A stretch of 54,188 nt of DNA from a virus (taxonomy: Duplodnaviria; Caudoviricetes): IMG/VR virus record IMGVR_UViG_3300034220_000043, positions 1 through 54,188 of that record. One strand, given 5' to 3'. Position 1 is the first letter of the stretch. Each line of letters begins with the position of its first letter. Positions 241-52,512 of the stretch are shown here, piece by piece. Made by a program: the position numbers and the translations under genes. The notes beneath the pieces were generated by a model. It did no database searches. It was given only the letters and a program-made list of their open reading frames with translations, and had not been told where the DNA came from.

Positions 241-1050
241 CTACCGTCGCATCACGGCGAGGCCCCGGTAGTTGGCCGTCCGCATCTTCCACGCCGGGTA
301 ACCCAGCTCGGTGAGCGCCATCCCGAACCGGGTCTCGGTCGGCACCTCGTCGGCGTGCGCGCGGGCCCAGGCCGAGAACGCGGTGTAGAGCTTGCGGCTC
401 GACGTGCCCATCGCGTGCGCCCCGCAGCAGCGCTGCACCCACTCCTGCACGAGCGCGGTCTCCGAGCGCGCGGTGGGCGGCGCGGGCAGGGTGTGCGGCA
501 GATGCACACCCCCGGTGGCCTGCGTGGAGGGTTCGCCGAGCGGACGGACACTGGGCGCGACCTGCGGTTGAGCGCCGGAGAGCAGAGCGGCGATCTGCGC
601 GAGCTGCCCCTCGGCCGCGGCGGCCCTGGACACCAGGTCCTGCACGAGCGCCACCGGGTCGACGACCGTCACGGTCTGGGCGGGCTGCTGCGCTACCTCC
701 GCCTCCCGCGTGCGCACCGCGAAGTACGCCTGGGCCGCAGCGATCTCCGGCTTGTTCGGGTCGCCGTTCATCGCGACGAGGTACGCCGCGAAGCGGGTGA
801 GGTCGTAGTCGGTCAGTGGACGGTTGCCGTTGATCTTCTGGGATCGCAGGAAATTGCTGGTCACGTCCATGCCGACGTTCTCCGCGGCGCGCATGGCGCG
901 GTTCAGCGGGACCTCGAAGTTCTCCCAGCGCGCGTAGTTCGTCAGCGTCTGCAGGTCGCGGGCGGACCACGTCTCCACGCCCTGCTCGTTGACGCTGCGG
1001 ATCGAGTCGAACGGCGAGGCGCCGCCGGTGCGGTCGAGGGTGGTGTTCAC
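241..1050 (-). CDS. Bro-N/DinD-like phage antirepressor with C-terminal winged-helix-like domain
   Basis: SPFDSIR..E.WSARDLQ...Y.RWENF...DY.LTRFAAYLVAMNGDPNKPEIAAAQAYFA; GTG start with AGGAG RBS. Confidence 0.85.
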   Translation of the reverse strand: MNTTLDRTGGASPFDSIRSVNEQGVETWSARDLQTLTNYARWENFEVPLNRAMRAAENVGMDVTSNFLRSQKINGNRPLTDYDLTRFAAYLVAMNGDPNKPEIAAAQAYFAVRTREAEVAQQPAQTVTVVDPVALVQDLVSRAAAAEGQLAQIAALLSGAQPQVAPSVRPLGEPSTQATGGVHLPHTLPAPPTARSETALVQEWVQRCCGAHAMGTSSRKLYTAFSAWARAHADEVPTETRFGMALTELGYPAWKMRTANYRGLAVMRR

Positions 1051-3996: not shown

Positions 3997-6170
3997 CGCT
4001 GGAGAAGCGCCCGCAGACCGACCTCGTGCCGGTGCAGCAGCCGGTGCAGGAGCGGGTCCGGCAGCACCTCGTCGCGCGCCGGGTCGCGGTCGTCGCCACC
4101 AGTCGCAGGCGGGCGTGGACGGCGTGGCGGGTGGCGCGCCAGCTCCCCGGCACGGCCTGGTGGCTCCTGGTGTACACCCCCCGCGGGGCCTGGCGGCTGC
4201 TGACGGCGTGGGCCCGCTACCTGCGGGATGTCGAGACCAGCGAGCTGCGCAGCCACCACGTCGGGACGCACGAGACCCCGGAGTACGTCCGCGCGTCGAA
4301 GGAGCGCGCGGCGAACCTACGGGCCCGCGCGCTCGGCTCCGCGCTGCTGGTGGCGCCCGGGCTGGTGCTGCTGCTGGCGTGGCTGGCGCCGCAGGTGCTG
4401 GCCTGGCTGGCCGCTGGCGGGGCGCTGGTGCTCGCCGTGAAGGTGCTCCCGCGGAAGGAGTGGTGGGAGATCCTGCTGCCGCCGGCCGCGGCGTACGGGG
4501 CGTGGTGGGTGACGCCCGACCTGGCGGCCCGGGTGCCGCACCCTCCAGGCTGGCTGGTGACGCTGGGCCTCGCGCTGGCGGTGGTGGTGTGCGGCTGGCA
4601 CGGCCGCCAGCTGGAGCGCCCGCTTGTCACCCTGCCGATGCGCGAGCACACCGAGGGGGACCTCCCGGCGAAGCCGACCGCGACGATGGTGGTCGACGCG
4701 CTGTGCCGCGCCGGGATCCCCGGCATGACCCTGCAGCAGGCCGACCGCGTGCACGACGAGACCCGGGTCATCGCGCCTGGCGTCGCCAGCTCGACGCACG
4801 GCTACATCGTCGAGCTGGAGCTGCCGCCTGGCGTGACCGTCGACATGGTGGTGAAGCAGCGCCCCCCGCTCGCCGCCGCGCTGCGCCGCGACCTGTCGAC
4901 GGTGTGGCCGTCCGGCAACCCCGAGCGGCACCCCGGCTACCTGCGCCTGTTCCTGTCGCACAAGCCGATGAACAGGGCGCGGCAGCCCGAGTGGCCGGTC
5001 GCGGTCGGCAAGCCGCTGTCCTACTTCGACGCCTTCCCGATGTTCACCGACGAGCAGCTGCGCTGGGTCGACCTCGTCCTGGCCGGCACGCACATGGCGA
5101 TGGGCGGAGCGTCCGGCTCGGGCAAGTCGGTCGGGCTCCGCCAGTTCGGCGTCGCGCTGGGGTTCGCGCTGGACACCGACATCATCGTGTTCGACGGCAA
5201 GCGCTCCGGGGACCTCAACCCGATCCGCGAGCTGTGCGTCGGCTTCTTCGAGGGCGCCGAGCCGGAGGACGTGCAGGAGCAGCTCGCCTGCCTGCGCTGG
5301 CTGGTCGCCGAGCGGGAGCGCCGCGCCCGGTTCCTGGCGTCGCTGCCGCGCGAGGAGAACCGCCAGTCGAAGGTGACCCGCGAGCTCGCGGCGAAGTACC
5401 CCGACCAGCTCGCGCCGATCGTCGTGCTGTTCGACGAGGTGCAGGAGTACACGGAGTACGGCATCAAGGGGAACAAGACCGAGAAGAAGATCCGCGACGA
5501 GTTCGTCGCGCTGCTGACCAAGCTGGCCCGCCTCGCCCGCGCGGCCGGCATCAGCCTGGTGTTCGTCTCGCAGAAGCCCGACGCCTCCGTGCTCCCCTCG
5601 GCGATCATGGGCAACTGCGGGATCCGCGTGGCGTTCCGGGTGCTGGAGCAGGTGCACAACGACCAGATCCTCGGCACGAGCGCCAGGAAGAACGGCGTCG
5701 ACGCGACCATGTTCACGCTGCAGGACCGCGGCATCGCCTGGGTCCGAGGCGGCGAGTCGGCCGACACGATGGTCGCGCGCACCTGGTCGCCGATGATCGA
5801 CCTCGACCTCGCCGACGAGCTGGCCGCCAAGGCGTACGCGCTGCGCAAGGCGGCCGGTCGTCTGCCCGCGTCGGACGACGTCGTCGACGCCATCGTGGTG
5901 CTCGACGAGGTGGTCGACTGCACTCGCGTGCTGATCCAGTGGGACCGCGACCGTGCGCACCTCAGCGAGCTGGCCGGGTGGCTCGCCGACGCGAAGCCCG
6001 ACTACGCGGGGCTCGACGCGGCCGAGCTGGGGAAGCGGCTGCGCAACCGCGGCGTCGCCGTCCGGCAGGTCCGTGTTGCCGAGCGCGTGACGGCCGGCGT
6101 CCGGCTGGTCGACCTGCAGGAACGCGGCGCGGACGCGGTGCTCGATCTCGACAACAGCGACGAGGAGTGA
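3993..6170 (+). CDS. traB: FtsK/SpoIIIE-family DNA translocase, TraB-like conjugative transfer protein (725 aa)
   Basis: N-terminal TM helices, Walker A GGASGSGKS, DGK, Walker B VVLFDEVQE, ARAAGI..SQKP, C-terminal wHTH-like region; context with the spd-like gene. Confidence 0.8.
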   Translation: MTLEKRPQTDLVPVQQPVQERVRQHLVARRVAVVATSRRRAWTAWRVARQLPGTAWWLLVYTPRGAWRLLTAWARYLRDVETSELRSHHVGTHETPEYVRASKERAANLRARALGSALLVAPGLVLLLAWLAPQVLAWLAAGGALVLAVKVLPRKEWWEILLPPAAAYGAWWVTPDLAARVPHPPGWLVTLGLALAVVVCGWHGRQLERPLVTLPMREHTEGDLPAKPTATMVVDALCRAGIPGMTLQQADRVHDETRVIAPGVASSTHGYIVELELPPGVTVDMVVKQRPPLAAALRRDLSTVWPSGNPERHPGYLRLFLSHKPMNRARQPEWPVAVGKPLSYFDAFPMFTDEQLRWVDLVLAGTHMAMGGASGSGKSVGLRQFGVALGFALDTDIIVFDGKRSGDLNPIRELCVGFFEGAEPEDVQEQLACLRWLVAERERRARFLASLPREENRQSKVTRELAAKYPDQLAPIVVLFDEVQEYTEYGIKGNKTEKKIRDEFVALLTKLARLARAAGISLVFVSQKPDASVLPSAIMGNCGIRVAFRVLEQVHNDQILGTSARKNGVDATMFTLQDRGIAWVRGGESADTMVARTWSPMIDLDLADELAAKAYALRKAAGRLPASDDVVDAIVVLDEVVDCTRVLIQWDRDRAHLSELAGWLADAKPDYAGLDAAELGKRLRNRGVAVRQVRVAERVTAGVRLVDLQERGADAVLDLDNSDEE

Positions 6171-33116: not shown

Positions 33117-36100
33117 TCACACCGAGTCCTGCCACGCGTACGAGGGCTCGCTCGGGTCGGCCACGATCGACACCCCGAGCAGCTCGGTCTCCATGCACCG
33201 CACCAGCTCGGCGGTCGCCTCAGCGGCGTCCTCGGCGGGCACGAACACGTCGAGCTCGTCGTGCACGGGCAGCAGCGTGCAGGTTCCCCAGCGGGTGTCG
33301 CGCCAGCGCACGAGGGTGTCGACGAGCAGCTCGCGGGCGGTGCCCTGGATGCAGTAGTTGGGCCCCTTGTGCGGGTACTCGCGCGGCAGGTGGATCACCC
33401 GGCCCGAGTAGCTCGGGTACTGGGTGGCGCCGCGCTTCACGGCCTCGCGGATGGACGCCGACCACGCGGCCAGGCCGGGGGTCAGCCCGTCGAGGGTGTC
33501 GATGACGGCCTGCATGACGTCGTGGCCGACGCCGACCTGGGTGGCGAGGGTGGAGATCCCGCCGCCGTAGATCCGGCCGAACACGCCCCGCTTGGCGATG
33601 TACCGGTTGGCCTTGGTCGCGCCCTCGCCCCAGACCTGGCGGGCGATCTCGCCGTGCAGGTCGCGGCCCTCGGCGAGGAACGCCAGGAGCGTCGGGTCCT
33701 GGCTCAGCGCGGCGGCCACGCGCAACTCGACCCCGGAGAAGTCGGCGCCGATCATGAGCTGGCCGGGGTCGGCGGTGATGCAGGCCCGGACCCCGCCCTC
33801 GCGGGAGAGCTGCTGCAGGTTGGGTCGCACGCAGCTCATGCGGCCGGTGTCGGTGCCGAGGGTGTAGACCGTCGGGCGGGCGCGGCCGTCGCCCCGCTCG
33901 CACAGCAGCCGGTAGGGCTCGAGGAACAGCCCGAGGGCGGTGTCGTGGTGGCGGTGGTCGAGCACGGCGCCGACCAGCTCCCCGAGCGGGCCCTCAGCGC
34001 CCCGCAGCGGCTCGAGGACGCCGGCGGCGACACTCGGGCGCCCGGTGGCCGTGCGCGGCAGCGGCGCGCCGAGCTGGAGGGCGACCTCGGCCACCTGCTG
34101 GTCCGAGCCGGGGTTCTCCACGCCCAGCGCGCGGACCCGCGCGGCGGCGGCGTCGCGGCCGGCGGTGTGGCGCTCGGTCATCTCGCGGACGTGCTCGGCG
34201 TCGATCCGCACGCCGCGGTGCGCGACCCGCGCGGTCATGCGCTGGGCGAGGCGCTCGCGCTCGTAGACCGCGGCGTCGGGCCGGGGCAGCGCGCGGGCGA
34301 GCGCGGCGGTGTCGAGCACGTCGGAGGCGGCGTAGCGCAGCATCGTGGTCGAGCCGGTCGCCACCTGCGCCCAGCCGGAGCGCTCGGGCGGGGTGTCGAC
34401 CTTCGTCGAGGTGAGCCAGCGCCCGGCCTTCCACAGCGCGGCCCGAGCGGCGTCGGCGGCCGGCGCCGTGGAGGCCGCCCCGAGCACCGCCCCGGCGAGC
34501 GCCTTGAGCCCGGGATCCGAGCCGGTGGACTGCGGGTCGGCGAGCTTGGCCGGGATCACGGTGTCGTGCATCCGGTCCCAGCCGCTCTCGGCGTCGATGA
34601 GCCCGGCGTGGGCCAGCGGCACCAGGTCGGCGGTCGCGGAGTGGGCGTGCAGCACCGGCGCGGCGGCGAGCAGCTCGCGCACCAGGCTGGCGTGGTCGAC
34701 CGGGTGCAGCACCGCGGCGGCGATCTCGTCGCCGAGCTGCACCGAGCGCAGCTCGTAGTCGGCGTGGCCGACCGGGTAGCCGGAGGTCTCCACGTCGACG
34801 GTCAGCGCGCCGGAGCGGGCGAGCGCGGCGCGCACCACCTCGCCGGCCTGGGCCGGGGTGACGGGCAGCGTGTTGCCGGCGCGGTCGACCACGGCGGGCA
34901 GGCCGAGCACCTCGCCCTGCGCGGTGGCGATGGCGTCGAGCCGCTTCTCCTCGGCCAGCTGGCGCCGGGCCTCGGCCTTGCTGATCTTCGCCTCGGTGGC
35001 CCGGGCGGCGGCCTCGGTCCTGCTCACGGAGCGTGGCGTAATCGCCTTCTCCGGCGCCGGGGTCGGCGGTGTGGACGGTCGCGGAGGCGGATTCGTACCC
35101 CCCACACCGTCCACCGCGCCCGCTACCTGGGGGTTCTCGCCTTCTTCGCCTCGGGTGTGGAGGGTCGGAGGGTTGGCCCCTACCGCCCTTCTATGAGTGG
35201 TGTTTTTCCACTGTTCTTCTTCTCCATCTACTGTATGACGAGACCTACCCTCCACACCCTCCACAGGAGATACAAAAACAGGGGGTGACATGGTGTTATC
35301 GGTTGTGGAGGGTACTGCGATAGACCCCCCACCAACCCCCCACAGACCCTCCACACGAGGCGCGAACGGCGAGGCCGAGCCGCCGGGAACGGCCGAGGGC
35401 GCGCCGGGGGCGGGCGCCGAGGCGGCGGGCGGCGGGGTCGGTGTGGAGGGTTGCGGGAAGCCCGGGTCGGCCCGCACCACTAACGGTCTGTAGTTGGCGT
35501 CGCGGCGCCTGAGCACGCCGAAGCCGAGCTCGTTGAGCGCCCGGCCCCAGGCCGTCTCGGTGAGGATCGAGGAGTCCCGGATGCCGGCGTCGCGGCACCA
35601 GCCCCGGAACCCGACGTAGAGCTGGTGCGACCTGGTGCCGTGCTCGTCGGGCTGGACCGACTCGGTGAGCCACTGCCCGAGCACGTCCTGGGAGCCGACG
35701 AGCTCGTCCATGACGAACTGGACGGCGAGCGGCGCGGCCGAGGTGAGGGCGCTGTCGGGGTTGGCCAGCCAGCCGGCGGCCTCGCGCATCAGCAGGGCGA
35801 GCACCCCGGGCGCCTCGGCGGCCCAGCGCGCGCCGCTGAGCGCCTGCCTGCGGGCCCGGACCTCGGCCGGGTCGCCGTTGCACGGCAGCAGCCGGATCCG
35901 GCGGCGCACGGCCGCGTCGGACACCGAGGGCGGGGTGTTGGAGGTGAGCACCAGGGTGTGGGTGGGCCGGAAGGTGATGGGGTTCTGGTTCATGGCGTTG
36001 CCGGTGAGCTCGCCGCCGCCGGTGAGCTGCTTGAGCCGCTCGGTGTTGCGGGTGCCCTCGCGCATGGCCTCGTCGATGAACGACAGCCGCCGGCCCTTGA

Positions 36101-38015
36101 GCGCGAAGACGATGCTGGCGTGGCCCTCGCCGCTGCCGAGGAGGCGGTGGTCGGCGGCGTGGGCGTAGGACCCGAGCACCTCCATGATCAGCGTGATGAG
36201 CGAGGTCTTCCCGGTGCCGCCCTCGCCGAACAGGATGGGCAGCGCGGCGTCGGCGTAGCCGGTGGTGGCGATGGACAGCACGCGCAGCGCCCAGGCGCGG
36301 ACCTCGGGGTCGGGCCACACCGCGGCGAGGAAGGCGTCCCACAGCGGCGTCGGGACGGGCGCGGGGCCCACGCCGGCGGCGACGAGGTGCGGGCCGTGCG
36401 GGTCGAGGTGCGTGGCGATGGTGGGCACCTCGGCGCTGGCGCGCAGGTCCCACGGCCAGCCGCCGGCCCACAGCACGTCGGGCTCGCGGTCGAGGTCGGC
36501 GATGCGGACGGTGGCGGGGTGGCGGCCGCCGTCGGTGTGTCGGCGCATCGTGGCGGCGACCGCGGCCGCGGGCCCGCTGGTCATCATCCGCAGGCGGCGC
36601 TTGTAGGCGCGCTGCGCCGGGCTGGCGGGCTCGCCCTTGGCCACGGGGGTGGGGTCGCCGTCGGGCATCAGGGCGGCGCACTCCGACACCACCCGCCCGG
36701 CGAGGTCGCCCTCCATCGACCACTGCTCGGCGCCGCGCAGCAGCCACGCGCTCTTGGTGTCGCTGGCGCGGCGGGCCATGTAGAAGCAGCGGCGCAGCAT
36801 CGCGTCGGCGAGCGGGTGGTCGAGGTCGACGCCGGGGTCGAACGCCTCGGTGCCCACGACCTGGGCCCAGGACGGGTCGACGAGCTTGGGCGGCAGCTGC
36901 AGGTGCAGCGGCTCGAAGGGCTCGGGGTCGTCCTCGCCGGCGCGGCGGTCGTCGACCGGGCGGGGGCGGGCGTCGACGGTGACCCCGGTCAGCCCGGCCC
37001 ACCCGGGGCCGCCGGGCAGGGTGCAGGGGTCGGCGAGGTGCTGGACGCCGCCGAGGACGGTGACGGCCTTGCGGGCGCTGGAGAGCAGCATGCGCTCGAA
37101 CTCGGCGTCGCGGGCCTCCCCGGCGGTGACCGCGGCCCACTGGTCGCGCAGGGCGGGCAGCGCGGCGCCGAGGCCGGCGTGGCCCATGGCCGCGGACTGG
37201 ACGAGGCGGTGCGTGCGGGCGGTCATGGCGTCGTGGCGGGCGCCGACGTCGGGGTCGGCCAGCGCGCGGGCGGTGGCGTCCAGGGCGTCGTACATGACCG
37301 AGCAGGCGGGCCGGTCGTCGGCGCTCAGGGCGGCGAGCAGCGCCTCCCCGCTGGCGTGGCTGGCCGAGGCGGGGGCGGCGTCGGTGGCGCCCTCGCGCAG
37401 CCCGTCGACCCAGGCCGGGGGCAGCTCGGGCAGCTCGCCGGGGGTGGGGAGCCGGGTGGCGGGGGCGCCGTCGGGGGCGTACCAGGTGTAGGCGGTGCCG
37501 ACGTCGCCGTGCGGGGAGGGCCAGACCACGGCGTAGCGGTGGTGGCGCTGGATGATCTCGATGTCGGGGCGCAGCACGGTGGCGTAGCGCCCGGCCGGCA
37601 CGCGGTAGAACCGGATGCGGCTGGGGCCCTGCCCGCGGGCGGTGGAGCTCCACGTGGGCGGCAGCAGCCCCCAGCGCGCTTCGGCGGCGGCGAGGGTCTG
37701 GCCGCCGACCTTCACCTTGCCGCTGGGGGTGGTGTAGTCGTCGACGTCGATGCCGACGATCCCGTCGGGCAGCCGCAGCGCGATGGAGTGCCCGGCGTAG
37801 CCGTTGCCGGCCCAGGCGGCGAGCAGCTCGGCCGAGGTGTCCTGGCCTTCCTCGCCGGTGTAGCCGGTGGGCGGCGGGCTCTTGGTCTCGGCGGGCACGG
37901 GCAGCACGGCGGGCCAGCCGGCGTGGTGGTAGAGCGCGGCCGCGGAGGCGAAGACGGGGGGCGCGGTGGTGGTCACGGGCGGCCGCCGAGCGGGCAGGGG
38001 GACTTCATCGTTCAC
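33117..38015 (-). CDS. Multidomain replicase: PrimPol primase + D5/P4-type SF3 helicase + 3'-5' exonuclease + family A DNA polymerase (~1630 aa)
   Basis: GIDVDDY; GEGGTGKTS, SFIDE, LKQLTGG; VDVETSG, YAASDV; TGRMS, PNLQQ, ADFSGVELRV, RYIAKRGVFGRIYG, VHDEL; no internal stop. Confidence 0.9.
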   Translation of the reverse strand: MNDEVPLPARRPPVTTTAPPVFASAAALYHHAGWPAVLPVPAETKSPPPTGYTGEEGQDTSAELLAAWAGNGYAGHSIALRLPDGIVGIDVDDYTTPSGKVKVGGQTLAAAEARWGLLPPTWSSTARGQGPSRIRFYRVPAGRYATVLRPDIEIIQRHHRYAVVWPSPHGDVGTAYTWYAPDGAPATRLPTPGELPELPPAWVDGLREGATDAAPASASHASGEALLAALSADDRPACSVMYDALDATARALADPDVGARHDAMTARTHRLVQSAAMGHAGLGAALPALRDQWAAVTAGEARDAEFERMLLSSARKAVTVLGGVQHLADPCTLPGGPGWAGLTGVTVDARPRPVDDRRAGEDDPEPFEPLHLQLPPKLVDPSWAQVVGTEAFDPGVDLDHPLADAMLRRCFYMARRASDTKSAWLLRGAEQWSMEGDLAGRVVSECAALMPDGDPTPVAKGEPASPAQRAYKRRLRMMTSGPAAAVAATMRRHTDGGRHPATVRIADLDREPDVLWAGGWPWDLRASAEVPTIATHLDPHGPHLVAAGVGPAPVPTPLWDAFLAAVWPDPEVRAWALRVLSIATTGYADAALPILFGEGGTGKTSLITLIMEVLGSYAHAADHRLLGSGEGHASIVFALKGRRLSFIDEAMREGTRNTERLKQLTGGGELTGNAMNQNPITFRPTHTLVLTSNTPPSVSDAAVRRRIRLLPCNGDPAEVRARRQALSGARWAAEAPGVLALLMREAAGWLANPDSALTSAAPLAVQFVMDELVGSQDVLGQWLTESVQPDEHGTRSHQLYVGFRGWCRDAGIRDSSILTETAWGRALNELGFGVLRRRDANYRPLVVRADPGFPQPSTPTPPPAASAPAPGAPSAVPGGSASPFAPRVEGLWGVGGGSIAVPSTTDNTMSPPVFVSPVEGVEGRSRHTVDGEEEQWKNTTHRRAVGANPPTLHTRGEEGENPQVAGAVDGVGGTNPPPRPSTPPTPAPEKAITPRSVSRTEAAARATEAKISKAEARRQLAEEKRLDAIATAQGEVLGLPAVVDRAGNTLPVTPAQAGEVVRAALARSGALTVDVETSGYPVGHADYELRSVQLGDEIAAAVLHPVDHASLVRELLAAAPVLHAHSATADLVPLAHAGLIDAESGWDRMHDTVIPAKLADPQSTGSDPGLKALAGAVLGAASTAPAADAARAALWKAGRWLTSTKVDTPPERSGWAQVATGSTTMLRYAASDVLDTAALARALPRPDAAVYERERLAQRMTARVAHRGVRIDAEHVREMTERHTAGRDAAAARVRALGVENPGSDQQVAEVALQLGAPLPRTATGRPSVAAGVLEPLRGAEGPLGELVGAVLDHRHHDTALGLFLEPYRLLCERGDGRARPTVYTLGTDTGRMSCVRPNLQQLSREGGVRACITADPGQLMIGADFSGVELRVAAALSQDPTLLAFLAEGRDLHGEIARQVWGEGATKANRYIAKRGVFGRIYGGGISTLATQVGVGHDVMQAVIDTLDGLTPGLAAWSASIREAVKRGATQYPSYSGRVIHLPREYPHKGPNYCIQGTARELLVDTLVRWRDTRWGTCTLLPVHDELDVFVPAEDAAEATAELVRCMETELLGVSIVADPSEPSYAWQDSV
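35071..35451. repeat. Iteron-like GTGGAGGGT/ACCCTCCAC cluster around an AT-rich core; putative replication origin
   Basis: Exact copies at 35157, 35247, 35256, 35305, 35346 and 35443; 1-mismatch copies at 35071 and 35106; AT-rich ~35190-35300. Confidence 0.75.
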
Positions 38016-39856
38016 GCACCTGTCGGGGAGCAGGGTTCGGTCAGAGCGGGGCCGGCCTGGTCGGGGAGGTTCAGGCCGAGCCGGTGGGCGATGAGGGGCA
38101 GGTAGGTGGGGTCGCGCTCGATGCCGAAGGCCCAGAAGCCCTCGTCGCGGGCGGCCTGCAGGGTGGTGCCGGAGCCGGCGAACGGGTCGAGTACCACCCC
38201 GCCGGGCGGGGTGACCAGCCGGACGAGCCACCGCATGAGCGCGAGCGGCTTCACGGTGGGGTGCGCGACACCGTCGACCTTCGGGCGTTCGGAGGTGGGG
38301 GCCTTCGCGCAGTAGAAGAACCGCGACGCCCCGCCGGAGTCCGCGCCCCGGGCGGGGACGCACTCGGTCTGCCCGGCGAACGCGCCGTACGCGTCGCGGA
38401 ACTTGTCGCTGCCGCGGCGGGTGGGGTTGGCTCCGCTGGTGAGCGCGCCGGTCTGCGCGTCGAGCTCGGCGGCTGCGTCCTCGTCCAGCACCACGTTCGC
38501 CGGCCACCGGCCCTGCTGAACATGGCCTGCCGTACACTTAGGGCATGCCGTGGATCGATCAGCAGGGGTACGTCCGGATGATCCATCAGGGTCGGGAGAC
38601 GCGAAAGCATCGAGTCGTCGCGGAGCAGATGCTCGGGCGCCCTCTCCTGTCGACGGAGCACGTTCACCATCGGAACGGGACGAAGTCGGACAACCGTCCG
38701 GAGAACCTGGAGATCGTGGATAACCGGTCTCACCTGCGCGAGCACTGGCAGGAAGGGCACTACGACCCGCGGGTGAAGCGTCAGACGAAGCCGGAAGCGA
38801 CGTGCTCAGGCTGCGGTCACTTCGGCCGTCTGCGGGCGAAGGGCATGTGCAGCTCGTGTTACTTCCAGGACTACTACCAGCGGCACCCGGAGAAGTGGGC
38901 GGCGTACCAGGCTCGACGCCGACGCGCGTAGCGTCGATGTTCAGCGCGCCCGTCCCGTGCGCCAGCACCGTCGCCGCCACCGTCCCGCCGCACGGCTTGC
39001 GCGCGACGACGATCGGCTCGTGGCCCGGCTTGAGCGCGGTTCCCCAGCCCTGCCAGCGGACAGCGTCCGGCGTCGATTCGCCGACCCGTTCAAGCCTGTT
39101 TTTCGTGGCGTTCCAACCGTCCCGTCCGTCAGCGCGCATGAATCCGACCCCCTCAGCGGGTCGGGTGGCGAACTCGACGCCCGGGGTGCCCTTGCGCCCG
39201 TTGAGGCGCCACACCTCGACGTCGAGCTCCGGGCCTACGCCTAGAAACTCCCGCAGCCAAGGCCACTTATCCAACGGGGGAACTTGCGAGTTTCGGTCAG
39301 GACTGAACCAATATTGAGACACATTGGCAGTGCCAAAGTGTTCGTCGATTTCACGGCGGCTGCGCCCAGACTGGGCGAGGGCGGCGCGAAGGGCTCGGCA
39401 GACAGTCGCCCTAGGATCGACGTCCTCGGTCCGCAGCTTGTCGATCGCCTTGCCCACATCGAGCGACTTCGGGAAGCCGGAGCCGTACAGCCAGGAGATC
39501 GAGTCGCGGATCTCGAACCCGGCCAGCCGCACCGACAGGCCCATGAGGTCGACGGTGCGGGACCCGGCGAACGCGAGCAGGTGCCCGCCTGGCTTGAGCA
39601 CCCGCAGACACTCGTCCCACACCGCCGGCGGCGGCACGAACCCGTCCCACGCCGCCGACATGAACCCGCGCCCGTCCGGGACGTGCTCCCGGTTGCCGGA
39701 GCACCAGGCGGTGACGGCCTGCGCGATGGCGGCCGGGCGGTGCTCGGCGAGGCCGTAGGGCGGGTCGCACACGATGGCGTCGAACTGCTCGTCGGCGAAG
39801 GTCCGCAGCACGTCGAGGCAGTCGCCGTCGAGCAGCACGGGCAGCGGCGCGGTCAT
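38012..39856 (-). CDS. N6-adenine/N4-cytosine DNA methyltransferase with two internal insertions
   Basis: DPPY, GSGFPKS, WGTALKP, GRWPANV, HPTVKP, DPFAGSGTT. Confidence 0.88.
   Translation of the reverse strand: MTAPLPVLLDGDCLDVLRTFADEQFDAIVCDPPYGLAEHRPAAIAQAVTAWCSGNREHVPDGRGFMSAAWDGFVPPPAVWDECLRVLKPGGHLLAFAGSRTVDLMGLSVRLAGFEIRDSISWLYGSGFPKSLDVGKAIDKLRTEDVDPRATVCRALRAALAQSGRSRREIDEHFGTANVSQYWFSPDRNSQVPPLDKWPWLREFLGVGPELDVEVWRLNGRKGTPGVEFATRPAEGVGFMRADGRDGWNATKNRLERVGESTPDAVRWQGWGTALKPGHEPIVVARKPCGGTVAATVLAHGTGALNIDATRVGVEPGTPPTSPGAAGSSPGSNTSCTCPSPADGRSDRSLSTSLPASSDASPAGRSALPASARAGETGYPRSPGSPDGCPTSSRSDGERAPSTGEGARASAPRRLDAFASPDPDGSSGRTPADRSTACPKCTAGHVQQGRWPANVVLDEDAAAELDAQTGALTSGANPTRRGSDKFRDAYGAFAGQTECVPARGADSGGASRFFYCAKAPTSERPKVDGVAHPTVKPLALMRWLVRLVTPPGGVVLDPFAGSGTTLQAARDEGFWAFGIERDPTYLPLIAHRLGLNLPDQAGPALTEPCSPTGA
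38545..38931 (+). CDS. HNH endonuclease nested antisense inside the methyltransferase
   Basis: GYVR..HRVVAEQMLGRPL..EHVHHRNG.KSDNRPENL..H; C-terminal CxxC..CxxC. Confidence 0.88.
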   Translation: MPWIDQQGYVRMIHQGRETRKHRVVAEQMLGRPLLSTEHVHHRNGTKSDNRPENLEIVDNRSHLREHWQEGHYDPRVKRQTKPEATCSGCGHFGRLRAKGMCSSCYFQDYYQRHPEKWAAYQARRRRA

Positions 39857-40320
39857 CGCGTACCGGCCCGGCGGCTCAGCGGGTCGGGGAGCCCGCAGTC
39901 GGAGGCGGCCGCGAACAGGCTGTGACGCCCGGCGTCGGCGGCGTGCGGCATGCCCTTGACGAGCAGCCCGGCCGCGATGAGGCGGCGGTCGGTCGCCCAC
40001 GGCTTCACCTCGGACGCGGACCGCAGCACGACGCGCATGCCCCGGTCGCCGGCCCAGGCCTGCAGCGCGCCGATGAGGTCGCGGGCGGTGCGGCCGCCGG
40101 CGGGGGTGGAGGAGCGCCCGGCGCGGGGCCCGACGACGAACGCCTCGACGGCCAGCAGCACCTCGGCGGGGTCCTGGGCGCCGAGCAGCATCTCGACGGT
40201 GTCGAGCACCAGCTCGGGGGTGACCTGCGCCAGGGCCGCGGGGCGCCAGGCGTCGAGGTCGATGCGGGCCAGGCCGGTGGTCGAGCCCGGGTCGACGCCG
40301 ATCACGGTGCGGATCTTCAT
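39853..40320 (-). CDS. RuvC-like Holliday junction resolvase
   Basis: VIGVDPGSTTG..VE.F..VK..HAADA. Confidence 0.75.
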   Translation of the reverse strand: MKIRTVIGVDPGSTTGLARIDLDAWRPAALAQVTPELVLDTVEMLLGAQDPAEVLLAVEAFVVGPRAGRSSTPAGGRTARDLIGALQAWAGDRGMRVVLRSASEVKPWATDRRLIAAGLLVKGMPHAADAGRHSLFAAASDCGLPDPLSRRAGTR

Positions 40321-41642
40321 GCCGCCACCGCCAGGCGCTGCGCGAGGTGGCCCAGCAGGTAGCGGAACGCGGCCGCGCCCTGCTGCGGCACGACGCCGTC
40401 GCCGAGCAGCGACAGGGCAGCGTTGCGGTGGCCGTTGGCGCGGGCCGCGAGGTCGGGGACGTCGCACACCCAGCCCTGGGGCAGGCCCATCATCCACTCG
40501 ACGAACGGCGGCGCGAGCTGGAAGCCGCCGCGGGGGCCGAGCTGGGTGGGGGCCGGGGCCTCGCGGTCGAACATGCAGCCCCAGCGGGCGACGGCCTCCG
40601 CGTAGACGCCCCAGTCGGCCGGCGGCGCGGCGGCGACCGCGATCTCGCGGGACCAGTCGCGGAGTCCCTCGCCGGTCAGCCAGCCCCGATCGCCGCCGGC
40701 ATCCGCCTCGCGCGGGGTGGGGATCAGGGTCACGGCAACGTCGCGCAGCCGCGGTCCGTGGTCGTTCCCGCCGTGGGTGCGCCGCTCGGGAACCGCGCGC
40801 ACGCCGCCCTGACCGTCCGTTCGGATCGGCGTAGGCAGTAGCGTCACCGCGGTCTGCAGGTTCAGCCCGCCGTCGCGGCCCGAGGTCCCGGCCCCGGTGG
40901 TCATGGACTGCGTCGGCGTCGGGAGCAGGGTGACGGCCTCGCGCAGCGACATGGGCACGACGGGCTGGGCCCGTACGCCGGCGCGGCTGTCCTGGTGGGT
41001 CGGCGTGGGCAGCAGGGTCAGGTGACCGCGCCCAGCAGGGTGGGGTTGCCCCGGCCGTACGTCATCGATGAGCGCTCGGCGTCGGAGCAGGCCGGCGTCG
41101 GCAGCAGCATCGATGGCGACGACGAAGCACCGGGCCCGCTGGTGGCAGCCCCAGACTCCGGGGTCGGAAGCGCGCTGCACCCGCCAGGACCCCACGTACC
41201 CGAGGGCGGCAAGGCCTCGGACAACTCGGCGAAGCTCACCGTTGCTGGTGATGCGGGCAACGTTCTCGCCGAAGAAGATCCGCGGCCGCGTCTCGGCGAT
41301 GGCGCGGGCGACGTTGGGCCAGAGGGCACGGGGGTCCGCCTCTCCCAGCCGCTTGCCGGCTGAGCTGTGCGGCTGGCACGGCCAGGAGGCGGCCAGCACG
41401 TCGATGGGCTCGAGGCCGGCGGCCTCGGCGGTGACGGGCCCGATCACCGGGAAGGCGCGGGCCATGTTCCCGAGGTTGGGCACGTCGGGGTGGCGGTGGC
41501 GCAGCAGCGCGACGGAGGCGGGCTTGATGTCGGAGTGCCAGGCGAAGCGCACCGACAGGTCGAAGTCGGCGAGCGCCCGGGCGACGGCCATGTCGAGCCC
41601 GCCGGCGCCGGTGAACAGGGACCCGCCGGTCAGCTCGGTCAC
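40317..41642 (-). CDS. DNA cytosine-5 methyltransferase
   Basis: SLFTGAGG, PCQ, ENV, HQRAR, EWMMGLP.GW, LGDGVVP; four TL(L/I)PTP repeats. Confidence 0.88.
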   Translation of the reverse strand: MTELTGGSLFTGAGGLDMAVARALADFDLSVRFAWHSDIKPASVALLRHRHPDVPNLGNMARAFPVIGPVTAEAAGLEPIDVLAASWPCQPHSSAGKRLGEADPRALWPNVARAIAETRPRIFFGENVARITSNGELRRVVRGLAALGYVGSWRVQRASDPGVWGCHQRARCFVVAIDAAADAGLLRRRALIDDVRPGQPHPAGRGHLTLLPTPTHQDSRAGVRAQPVVPMSLREAVTLLPTPTQSMTTGAGTSGRDGGLNLQTAVTLLPTPIRTDGQGGVRAVPERRTHGGNDHGPRLRDVAVTLIPTPREADAGGDRGWLTGEGLRDWSREIAVAAAPPADWGVYAEAVARWGCMFDREAPAPTQLGPRGGFQLAPPFVEWMMGLPQGWVCDVPDLAARANGHRNAALSLLGDGVVPQQGAAAFRYLLGHLAQRLAVAA

Positions 41643-50659: not shown

Positions 50660-51142
50660 GTGATCAGCGACGACGCGGTCTGCCTCCTCGACATGCTCCA
50701 GGAGATCCTGGAACGTGACGGCGAGCTGCACCTGCGGCACGTCGACCTCCCTCCCGGCAGGCTCGGCCTCGCCCACTTCCGACAGCGGCTGGTGACCCTC
50801 GCCCGCGGCTTGGACCGCGGCGAGTGGCGCGGCACCCTCGGCCACGAGCTGATGCACCTCAAGCGCGGCCCGGTCGCGAGAGAACACGCCGAGGCGGAGG
50901 AGGAGGAGGTCCAGCGCGAGACCGCCGCGATGCTGGTACCCCCGGGCCCGGCGCTGGCCCAGCTCGGCAGGGAGTGGAGCGACGGGGAGATCCAGGAGTT
51001 CGCGTCGCGGTTCGTCGTGGACCGCGACACCATCGAGACCGCACTCGACCAGGCCGGGGTTCCCGAGACGCCGGCGCGGGGCAGCGTCCCGGTCCCGCGG
51101 CTGCCGGTGTTCATCGAGCTGGGCTCGGCGTCGCGACGCTAG
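50660..51142 (+). CDS. ImmA/IrrE-family metallopeptidase (copy 2)
   Basis: RGTLGHELMH..RG..EE..AA.LV; lies between the repressor and the integrase. Confidence 0.82.
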   Translation: MISDDAVCLLDMLQEILERDGELHLRHVDLPPGRLGLAHFRQRLVTLARGLDRGEWRGTLGHELMHLKRGPVAREHAEAEEEEVQRETAAMLVPPGPALAQLGREWSDGEIQEFASRFVVDRDTIETALDQAGVPETPARGSVPVPRLPVFIELGSASRR

Positions 51143-52512
51143 AGGTGTGCGCGCGCCCGGATCTGCACGGTCCCCTCGACGAAGTACGCGCCGCCCGGCC
51201 GGCGCCCGGCCTGCTGGCGCAGCAGCGTCACCTCGACCAGAGCGCCGACGACGCGGCGCTGCCGGTCCACGTCGAGCGCCCGGAACGCCGCCCGTGGGTC
51301 GCGCGCGTCGGCGACACCGGCCAGCGGGGTGGAGCCGGCGTGGCGCATCAGCTCGTCCTGCGTGGCGGCAATCTCCGCCTGCAGGGGCTGGTTGGCTACC
51401 CGGAACTGCGCCGGTGTCATGCCCCCGTCCAGGTCGCCGAGCGTCGCGGCCAGCATGTCGGAGCGGGCGCGCAGGACTGCGAGGCGGTGGCGCAGAAGCG
51501 TCAGGTCGACGGCCGGTGCCAGCAGCGCGACGTTGTCACGGGCCAGCAGCTCGGCGACGACGTGCAGGACGAGCTCGTCGACGGGCGGCGCGACCCGGCT
51601 CATGTGGTTGGCGGCGCAGGCGTAGCGCGGCTGGCCGTCGGAGCGGGTGCCGCCGGAGCGGACCAGCTCGCCGCACTCGCAGCGGTACAGGAACGAGCCC
51701 AGCAGCTTGAGGCTGGTGCCGCGGTGGGTGAGCCGGGCCGGGTCGGACAGCAGCGTGACCAGCGCCTCCCAGGTGTCGCGCTCGACGATCGCCGGCCAGC
51801 GGGCCGGGCCGAGGATGCGGCCCTTGTTGCCGGCGAGCCCGGCGTTGCGGGGGCGCAGCAGCATCTGCCGCAGGTTGGACGGGTCCCAAGCCCGGCCCGA
51901 GGTGGTGCTCACCCCGGCGGCATTCCAGCTCCGGGCGATCGAGCGCGACGAGTGCCCGGCCAGCAGGTCGGCCGCGGCCGCGGCGACTAGCTCGGCCTCG
52001 GCACGCCGCACCGTGACCCCGTCGCGCTCGAAGCCGAACGGGCGCCGCCCCCCGAGCCAGCGTCCCTCGGCGAGCGCCTGAGCCTTCTGTCGGGCGACGC
52101 GCTCGCCCTTCTGCTCGGACTCGTGGCGGGCGACGGCGCCGACGATGCGCGCGGTCATCCGGCCGGACGCCGTCGACAGGTCCAGCTCTCCGGCGCGCAC
52201 GGTGTGGGTGGGCGCGCCGCGGGTCAGGTCGATGTAGCGCTCGAGCTCGACGGGGGAGCGGTGCAGGCGGTCGGCGTGCCAGGCCAGCACAGCGTCCACG
52301 TGGCCCGCCTCGATGTCGTTGAGCAGGCGCTCGTAGCCCGGCCGGGGCTTGCCGGAGTAGGCGCTCGTGTCGTTGTCGACGTAGACCTCGGCGACGTCCC
52401 AGCCGAGCTGGGCGGCCAGCGCGCGGCAGTCGGCTTCCTGCCGGTCGACGCCGAGACCTGCGCCGATGCGATCCTGCGAGATCCTCGCGTACACCGCTGC
52501 GCGCCGCTTCAC
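51139..52512 (-). CDS. int: Large serine recombinase (integrase)
   Basis: AVYARISQD, DNDTSA, RPGY, DRL.R, recombinase domain, CECG..C zinc ribbon. Confidence 0.95.
   Translation of the reverse strand: MKRRAAVYARISQDRIGAGLGVDRQEADCRALAAQLGWDVAEVYVDNDTSAYSGKPRPGYERLLNDIEAGHVDAVLAWHADRLHRSPVELERYIDLTRGAPTHTVRAGELDLSTASGRMTARIVGAVARHESEQKGERVARQKAQALAEGRWLGGRRPFGFERDGVTVRRAEAELVAAAAADLLAGHSSRSIARSWNAAGVSTTSGRAWDPSNLRQMLLRPRNAGLAGNKGRILGPARWPAIVERDTWEALVTLLSDPARLTHRGTSLKLLGSFLYRCECGELVRSGGTRSDGQPRYACAANHMSRVAPPVDELVLHVVAELLARDNVALLAPAVDLTLLRHRLAVLRARSDMLAATLGDLDGGMTPAQFRVANQPLQAEIAATQDELMRHAGSTPLAGVADARDPRAAFRALDVDRQRRVVGALVEVTLLRQQAGRRPGGAYFVEGTVQIRARAHL

Follow-up and report, generated by a model that had tools for sequence, protein, structure and literature searches.

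Where does a phage whose replicase is a single long polypeptide begin to copy its DNA? This question is raised by a cluster of short repeats in a 54,188-nucleotide (nt) virus record (IMGVR_UViG_3300034220_000043, Caudoviricetes; CheckV completeness, 94%; GC content, 74%), the whole of which was analyzed and is called the window below. The host group of this phage and its relatives is the high-GC actinobacteria and, to our knowledge, the origins of actinobacterial phages are largely unmapped. The repeats lie within one large gene on the minus strand (33117..37976), encoding a fused replicase of 1619 amino acids (aa) composed of a prim-pol, an SF3 helicase, a winged helix, a linker and the exonuclease and polymerase of a family A DNA polymerase (PolA). 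Sequence comparisons identify the repeats as DNA-level sites, with a sequence particular to each element, in a linker that is kept translatable. The segment 35071-35451 is probably the iteron-type replication origin of the phage, located inside the translated linker of its single-polypeptide replicase. This assignment is made because iterons in both orientations flank an unwinding-prone core next to the DNA-binding domain of the putative initiator-helicase.

The repeat is the 9-mer GTGGAGGGT. A first-pass annotation of this DNA had counted six exact and two one-mismatch copies; the six exact copies were found again, whereas the number with one mismatch is five. Following the direction of the gene, the array begins with an exact iteron at 35443..35451 (+), which the gene translates as P-S-T. 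It is followed by three direct iterons at 11-nt intervals (35324..35354, minus strand), the one at 35346 being exact and those at 35335 and 35324, each with one mismatch, having the sequence GTGGGGGGT. An exact copy at 35305..35313 (+), inverted relative to this triple, is followed by a tandem pair of exact iterons 9 nt apart (35247 and 35256; 35247..35264, minus strand), which are read VEGVEG. On the far side of an AT-rich core lies the last exact copy (35157..35165, plus strand), inverted relative to the tandem pair, and then three one-mismatch copies distributed over both strands (35071+, 35097- and 35106-; 35071..35114). Throughout the window, 35 matches with at most one mismatch were counted, compared to a mean of 16.9 and a maximum of 25 in shuffled sequences (0 of 100 shuffles reached 35), and 11 of the 35 are packed into the 381 nt between 35071 and 35451. 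Only one exact copy, at position 524, lies outside the array. Depending on strand and frame, the same 9-mer is translated as VEG, PST or TLH. Since the copies occupy all reading frames and both strands, the repeat appears to act as DNA and not as peptide.

The repeats had been proposed to surround, in both orientations, the most AT-rich stretch of the region. This proved correct, and the core that they enclose (35187..35306), a candidate DNA-unwinding element, has the lowest GC content and the least stable duplex of the entire record. Its GC content is 47% over the 120 nt starting at 35187, against a window mean of 74%. Among 80-nt duplexes, the least stable in the record spans 35201-35280, with a ΔG of -106 versus a mean of -137 (standard deviation, 5.8), placing it 5 standard deviations below the mean in stability. 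Four further low-GC segments occur in the record, all of them intergenic; low-GC segments elsewhere, including those at 39.2, 45.3 and 50.4 kb, carry no iteron copies. Relatives show a GC dip at the same place. GC skew over the region was set aside, as gene orientation dominates it.

Some further features of the core were recorded. On the plus strand, antisense to the replicase, a terminator-like hairpin with a T-rich run lies within it at 35195-35216 (two overlapping hits; shuffle mean, 0.3). Several relatives have alternating purine-pyrimidine (CA)/(CG) runs in place of the core, with the consensus CACACGCGCGCACACACGCACAGG; a tract of this type is found at 5700-5740 of locus L007 and at the aligned place in L010 and L011 (columns 316-340 of alignment A3), and the linker of L020 has a GT microsatellite at the core position. 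These (CA)/(CG) or GT tracts may represent an alternative easily unwound, or Z-prone, element.

The frame had been said to stay open across the repeats, and it does so without interruption from 33117 to 38537 on the minus strand; the coding start was placed near 37976 by the in-frame GC content of third codon positions (GC3). A database protein, P0006, is identical to the 1619-aa replicase. Pfam matches comprise DUF5906, DNA_pol_A_exo1 and DNA_pol_A, while PHROG matches comprise PHROG 1156 (primase) and PHROG 17 (polymerase). The primase-helicase part extends over 35496..37961 (phrog_1156 over P0001 193-1014; E value, 4e-104) and includes the DUF5906/SF3 ATPase core at 35901-36233 (PF19263 over P0001 769-879); the prim-pol N-terminus corresponds to PF09250, precomputed for the identical protein P0006. 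The C-terminal winged-helix domain of the helicase, our proposed iteron reader, is placed at 35472..35693 by an AlphaFold model and its match to 1ka8_A. On the downstream side are the PolA 3'-5' exonuclease (34287-34841; PF01612) and polymerase (33183-34154; PF00476), all of these features being on the minus strand. In agreement with the initial claim that the array directly follows the winged helix, the latter ends at 35472 and the first iteron copy lies 21 nt further on. The linker itself, whose boundaries were set by tblastn with the end of the helicase and the beginning of PolA, measures 540 nt (34932..35471), or about 180 aa, and is rich in P, S, T, G and A. Between 35150 and 35380, GC3 in frame drops from 1.00 to 0.37-0.50; because of this collapse, the usual coding signature is lost in the linker even though the frame is open. 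A scan of 34500-36000 against Rfam at E ≤ 1 yielded no match, nor did a scan of 34700-35800 for sigma-70-type promoters.

To ask how far this arrangement extends, 61 related loci (L004-L064) were collected by pattern scans of IMG/VR, GTDB genomes and JGI metagenomes; L001-L003 derive from three of the contigs already in this set. The 61 loci and the window make 62, representing 44 distinct elements. Bacterial strains that carry a family member include Nocardioides marinquilinus JCM 18459 (L035) and Micromonospora zingiberis PLAI 1-1 (L036). A scan of genome contigs with a single protein gave 86 pattern hits, none of which was confirmed; a profile scan then gave five. In 38 of the 40 distinct elements that have both domains in order, the end of the helicase and the start of PolA share one frame with no intervening stop. 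Across these 38 linkers, the replicase frame contains no stop at all, compared to 187 and 263 in the other two forward frames, neither of which is open in any of them. The same bias is seen within the iterons: none of 102 forward TGA[AC]GGG copies has its TGA in frame, the other two registers holding 46 and 56, which argues that selection keeps the linker translatable. The suggestion that this stretch doubles as a protein linker is thus upheld.

The two exceptions are L037, frameshifted in the N-terminal part of PolA, and L064, which is broken. In L037, from an Actinophytocola genome, PolA is encoded in another frame than the helicase, and the helicase frame has two stops; in L030, PolA lies upstream of the helicase. 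Decay, an assembly error or a rearranged form are possible explanations for both loci. In-frame gaps of about 700-930 nt separate the PolA tblastn pieces of L006 (4095-4804), L019 (7695-8383) and L021 (7413-8344), and one protein of the family, P0078, has an HNH_3 domain; these gaps may be inteins or homing-endonuclease insertions.

The family is large. At least 416 protein clusters match residues 600-1350 at E ≤ 1e-10 (search restricted to proteins of 890-2834 aa, with the best 7,999 candidates scored). NCBI labels some of these clusters, in Pseudonocardia, Micromonospora, Labedaea and Prauserella, as "DNA polymerase", and JGI labels many relatives as "P4 family phage/plasmid primase-like". 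Among cultured phages (tblastn, 4,046 records), only distant relatives with less than 60% identity were found; in these, primase/helicase and PolA are separate adjacent genes, and no record spans 80% of the fused protein in one place.

Nearly all relatives carry an iteron array at the same place and with the same layout. In an unbiased count, the commonest 9-mer of the whole replicase gene turned out to be the linker repeat in all four elements counted: GTGGAGGGT in the window (6 copies) and in L002 (10 copies), GTGCAGGGT in L001 (6 copies) and GTGACGGGT in L003 (8 copies). The tandem pairs homologous to VEGVEG are translated VQGVQG in L001 and VTGVTG in L003. Words across the larger set mostly conform to xTG-NN-GGGT(T), where NN is GA, CA, AC, AA, GC or CT; more divergent ones are CGGACAGTT in L015, GTGACCAGT in L016 and GTGACCAC in L039. 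The top 8-mer of the linker (median, 8 copies) exceeds every background segment of the same length from its own locus in 33 of 39 distinct loci (1,866 background segments; median, 3; 95th percentile, 4), and the load amounts to 6-13 sites in about 180 codons. In aligned linkers all copies have changed in concert, to ATGAC in L007, GTGAC in L010 and GTGAA in L011. When iteron class was mapped on the PolA tree, it was almost unclustered (13 changes; minimum, 7; shuffled mean, 14.1), suggesting that words switch often or that modules recombine.

The layout, described in gene orientation, starts with three direct copies spaced by 21 or 11, then 11 nt. After another 17-21 nt comes an inverted copy, a spacer of about 50 nt then leads to a tandem pair 8-9 nt apart, and about 75-97 nt with the GC dip precede one or more inverted copies. 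Among 150 spacings between same-orientation neighbors in 38 loci, the commonest are 11 (30 cases), 9 (25), 21 (21) and 8 nt (12). The window fits this shared layout, its phased triple having partly drifted to GTGGGGGGT. The forward copies in the window also include GGAGG, a Shine-Dalgarno-like core. This is unlikely to reflect a conserved function, since the GACGGGT and GAAGGGT words of relatives lack GGAGG; in the window phage itself it might cause ribosome pausing.

The proposed reader of the repeats is the domain that adjoins them. The last 125 residues of the helicase module were modeled with AlphaFold from an alignment of 38 sequences. The model, with a mean predicted local distance difference test score (pLDDT) of 79.8, and above 90 over residues 50-120, is a winged helix. 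The top rows of a Foldseek search with it are RFX DNA-binding domains and Orc1/Cdc6 on origin DNA, the P4 origin-binding domain ranking fifth (E value, 0.24). Upon structural re-alignment of Foldseek's own matches, that P4 domain (1ka8_A) gave a Z score of 9.1, with a root-mean-square deviation of 2.4 over 76 of 100 residues and 14% sequence identity, followed by the AsfvPrimPol C-terminus (Z, 8.9), RFX5 (Z, 8.3) and RFX1 (Z, 7.9). As modeled, the winged helix has the P4 origin-binding fold. Pfam at E ≤ 0.01 placed no family over P0001 residues 950-1014, through which the PHROG primase profiles run.

The alignments also reveal that the iteron sequence covaries with a residue of the wing. In a first set of elements, 830 columns covering the C-terminal part of the helicase and PolA were compared with the iteron word, and the best column by far was the first residue of the wing's first strand: where iteron base 4 is A, 16 of 17 elements have His there, and where it is G, 0 of 9 do (p = 3e-6). 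The set was then enlarged to 41 non-identical rows. These exclude L030, whose genes are in another order and which lacks a clear winged helix, L064, whose frame is broken, L024, whose protein is that of L012, and loci whose helicase sequences are identical. Here the wing His is present in 21 of 22 elements with TGA[AC]GGG iterons and in none of the 19 others (Fisher p = 8e-11), making this the best of 285 columns; the next best reaches 9e-5. Such single-column sharpness, with other winged-helix columns associating far more weakly, argues for selection on the wing residue. On the helicase-core tree, seven independent contrasts fall on well-supported branches, of which 6.8 on average are concordant and none opposite (sign test, median p = 0.016). 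In the window, the residue at this column is Arg (codon 35508-35510), part of the R-R-R codons of the wing strand (35502..35510, minus strand).

For iteron base 1, the best of 287 columns is the residue two positions further along the same strand (window codon 35502-35504), with Arg in 13 of 20 elements with G-first iterons and 0 of 11 with A/C-first iterons. The p value of 4e-4 fails multiple-test correction, and this link is suggestive only. Two checks made from protein sequences agree with the His association. Proteins with exact tandem peptides VTG or VKG have His in 8 of 8 cases, other types in 0 of 24 (88 of 120 proteins lack such a peptide); with signature calls, whose rows partly overlap those of the DNA set, the figures are 16 of 17 versus 0 of 34 (65 of 116 proteins uncallable). 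Separately, Lys occupies the covarying column in 11 of 13 proteins whose peptide signatures indicate TGGCGGGT-type iterons, a pairing that would be a possible second recognition rule. Altogether, the presence of the repeats on both strands and in all frames, their concerted switches of sequence and their covariation with the wing bear out the original proposal that they act as DNA.

A second protein of the same phage is relevant here. An antirepressor-like protein (241-1050, minus strand) has a C-terminal winged helix paralogous to that of the replicase (36% identity over 70 aa; E value, 2e-11), with the wing motif ANYR in both. The stray exact GTGGAGGGT at 524-532 falls within its gene, between its two domains, and is read P-S-T. 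A single stray copy in 54 kb could be due to chance. From these sequence similarities, the antirepressor-like protein may bind the same iterons, and it may compete for these sites or regulate them. A search for an antirepressor-type paralogue in the records of five relatives (49-78% complete) matched only the replicase's own domain.

How might such an origin work? From its anatomy, and by analogy with the systems discussed below (SaPI, P4, lambda O and N15 RepA), we infer that the linker would be the place where iterons are bound, the duplex melts and replication starts. The C-terminal winged helix of the helicase module would bind 9-10-nt iterons, (T)GTGGAGGGT, the residues of its beta-hairpin wing reading bases 1 and 4. 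The phased triple, the inverted copy, the tandem pair and the inverted copies on the far side would set helicase subunits on both flanks of the core. The helicase would then load itself and melt the least stable duplex of the genome, the N-terminal prim-pol would prime, and the tethered PolA would extend. Since this origin would be located within the gene, transcription would cross it and the protein would be made beside its own site. A wider proposal, which we advance tentatively and which may well overreach, is that the replicase gene is a complete one-gene replicon, supplying primase, helicase, origin recognition and polymerase and carrying in cis the origin that they use; recognition would follow a simple, evolvable code, with iteron bases 4 and 1 read by residues i and i+2 of the wing, so that related phages in one host keep separate, non-cross-reacting origins.

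Several observations count against an origin at this place. The linker has no outstanding 8-mer in 6 of the 39 loci (L020, L022, L026, L027, L049 and L051), and the repeats are weak or unclear in L022, L026, L027 and L029. The distant cultured phages Samy, SuMoo and Amyev, with separate primase/helicase and PolA genes, have no iteron cluster between the two genes, so the iteron position is not general. Foldseek returned no match to the winged-helix model at E ≤ 0.001. The winged helix adjoins the iterons, and co-inheritance by recombination could add to the covariation. The public runs that contain the window sequence, being stored only as contigs, give no local depth and hence no coverage signal of initiation. 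Finally, in N15 a centromere site lies inside repA (PMC2847241), which means that repeated sites in a rep gene need not be an origin.

The sites could be bound by the winged helix and yet serve regulation alone, through roadblock autoregulation of the PolA part, handcuffing copy control or titration of the replicase, with the origin elsewhere. The location of the sites in the replicase's own transcription unit fits with this, as does the antirepressor-like protein, whose paralogous winged helix shares the ANYR wing and suggests regulation at the sites, and the further low-GC segments at 39.2, 45.3 and 50.4 kb would offer other places to initiate. Those segments are, however, devoid of iterons, whereas the genome's least stable duplex lies within the array, which has the inverted-flank architecture described for origins of self-loading helicases (PMC9371898). 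We regard a purely regulatory role as unlikely. We give still less credence to the idea that something other than the replicase uses the repeats; for example, they might form a partition centromere, be recognized by terminase (pac) or be bound by the antirepressor-like winged-helix protein at 241-1050. The N15 precedent (PMC2847241) and the wing motif shared by the antirepressor-like protein speak for it; but the PHROG scan of the 49 window genes found a serine integrase and no partition genes, the terminase genes are 2.4 kb from the array with an upstream gap of their own, and the paralogue did not turn up in the five incomplete records of relatives. Iteron type also tracks the wing residue of the replicase itself. 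Linkers rich in P, S, T, G and A often contain short repeats, and this linker is of that composition; nevertheless, a repeat at the peptide level, or a product of composition or chance in low-complexity sequence, with no role as DNA, is very hard to reconcile with one 9-mer read in three ways according to frame and strand, with a count that shuffles never attain and with relatives that alter the DNA word at all copies together. We consider this last explanation extremely improbable.

A GC3-guided gene call and PHROG scan, yielding 49 genes, indicate a temperate siphovirus-like organization, with portal, protease, capsid, tail and tape-measure genes from 7 to 32 kb, the replication module from 33 to 49 kb and the serine integrase at 51139-52512 (minus strand). 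Immediately upstream of the replicase, on the same strand, are two genes resembling DNA methyltransferases (38012-38494 and 40317-41642); within the first, a 68-nt piece shares 90% identity with the methyltransferase gene of Mycobacterium phage Dumbo. Megablast of the replicase gene gave no match against plasmids, and against phages its sole match was this 68-nt piece under the upstream methyltransferase. The window sequence was found in 13 public sequencing runs, none of them RNA among those listed; four of the 13, compared with the window, showed no informative variants, and X1, a possible source of this DNA, covers 34300-36300 and has no difference from it.

The closest parallels to the proposed origin are found in Staphylococcus aureus pathogenicity islands (SaPIs). 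Directly downstream of rep, their origins carry six to twelve iterons, with at least two on either side of an AT-rich centre pointing in opposite directions, and a C-terminal winged helix recognizes these iterons; in SaPI5 the primase is fused to the helicase (PriRep5) (PMC9371898). Like these modules as described there, the present system combines a self-loading type of helicase bearing a C-terminal winged helix with short iterons right after the helicase coding part. However, the SaPI origin lies downstream of the stop codon, whereas here it would itself encode a linker and run on, in the same frame, into a family A polymerase, and SaPI Rep is assigned to the pre-sensor II insert (MCM-like) clade (PMC9371898) while the ATPase studied here matches profiles of the DUF5906/P4-D5 type. 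The hosts differ as well, being S. aureus in one case and high-GC actinobacteria in the other. With P4 alpha the replicase shares the order primase, SF3 helicase, winged helix, and its model is closest to 1ka8_A. The P4 origin and crr are located outside the alpha coding region, and we know of no polymerase fused to alpha.

In lambda, the origin lies within gene O, with iterons and an adjacent AT-rich stretch in the coding sequence of the initiator (PMC3349717). The likeness is that of a site inside the open reading frame of its own, here proposed, initiator. Lambda O is neither helicase nor primase, recruits host DnaB via P, has four direct 18-bp iterons and belongs to a family unrelated to the replicase. 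No O-type domain was found in the latter, the domains recognized being prim-pol, DUF5906 and PolA, and we view the relation to lambda O as analogy only. N15, a linear plasmid prophage, similarly initiates bidirectional replication, by the multifunctional RepA, within repA itself, and it uses the host polymerase (PMC2847241). The likeness is that of initiation inside the initiator gene; RepA is not known to be fused to a PolA. Polyproteins joining primase, helicase and PolA are exemplified by the apicoplast PREX, alongside some phage PolA-helicase fusions (PMC10201439). PREX likewise holds primase, helicase and family A polymerase in one polypeptide, but proteins of this type have a TOPRIM primase and a PolA of a different cluster, and the portions of that article dealing with them report no linker origin; the actinophage "D29-like" PolAs are listed there with no known partners (PMC10201439). 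Full-text literature searches found no paper on the fusion or on iteron origins in actinobacteriophages, which is not proof of absence. By comparison with these systems, the kind of origin is itself known; what appears to be new is an origin that would form the translated linker of a three-enzyme polypeptide, conserved across a large family of actinobacterial phages.

In conclusion, these data make a candidate origin locatable from sequence alone in a family of at least 416 protein clusters. They also describe two codes on one stretch of DNA, in which about 180 codons stay open while holding 6-13 binding sites and an unwinding element; this dual coding is achieved through frame placement of the TGA-containing sites and loss of the host GC3 bias. 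The concerted iteron switches, with their matching wing residue, provide a testable specificity rule for winged helices of the RFX/P4 type. A primase-helicase-polymerase with a built-in origin would, if confirmed, be a compact replicon for vectors in Streptomyces-like hosts. Should the one-gene replicon hold true, this family would offer, for high-GC actinobacteria, a naturally occurring collection of replication modules that are portable and mutually orthogonal; it would also be one of the rare examples of a DNA-protein recognition code readable by covariation alone.

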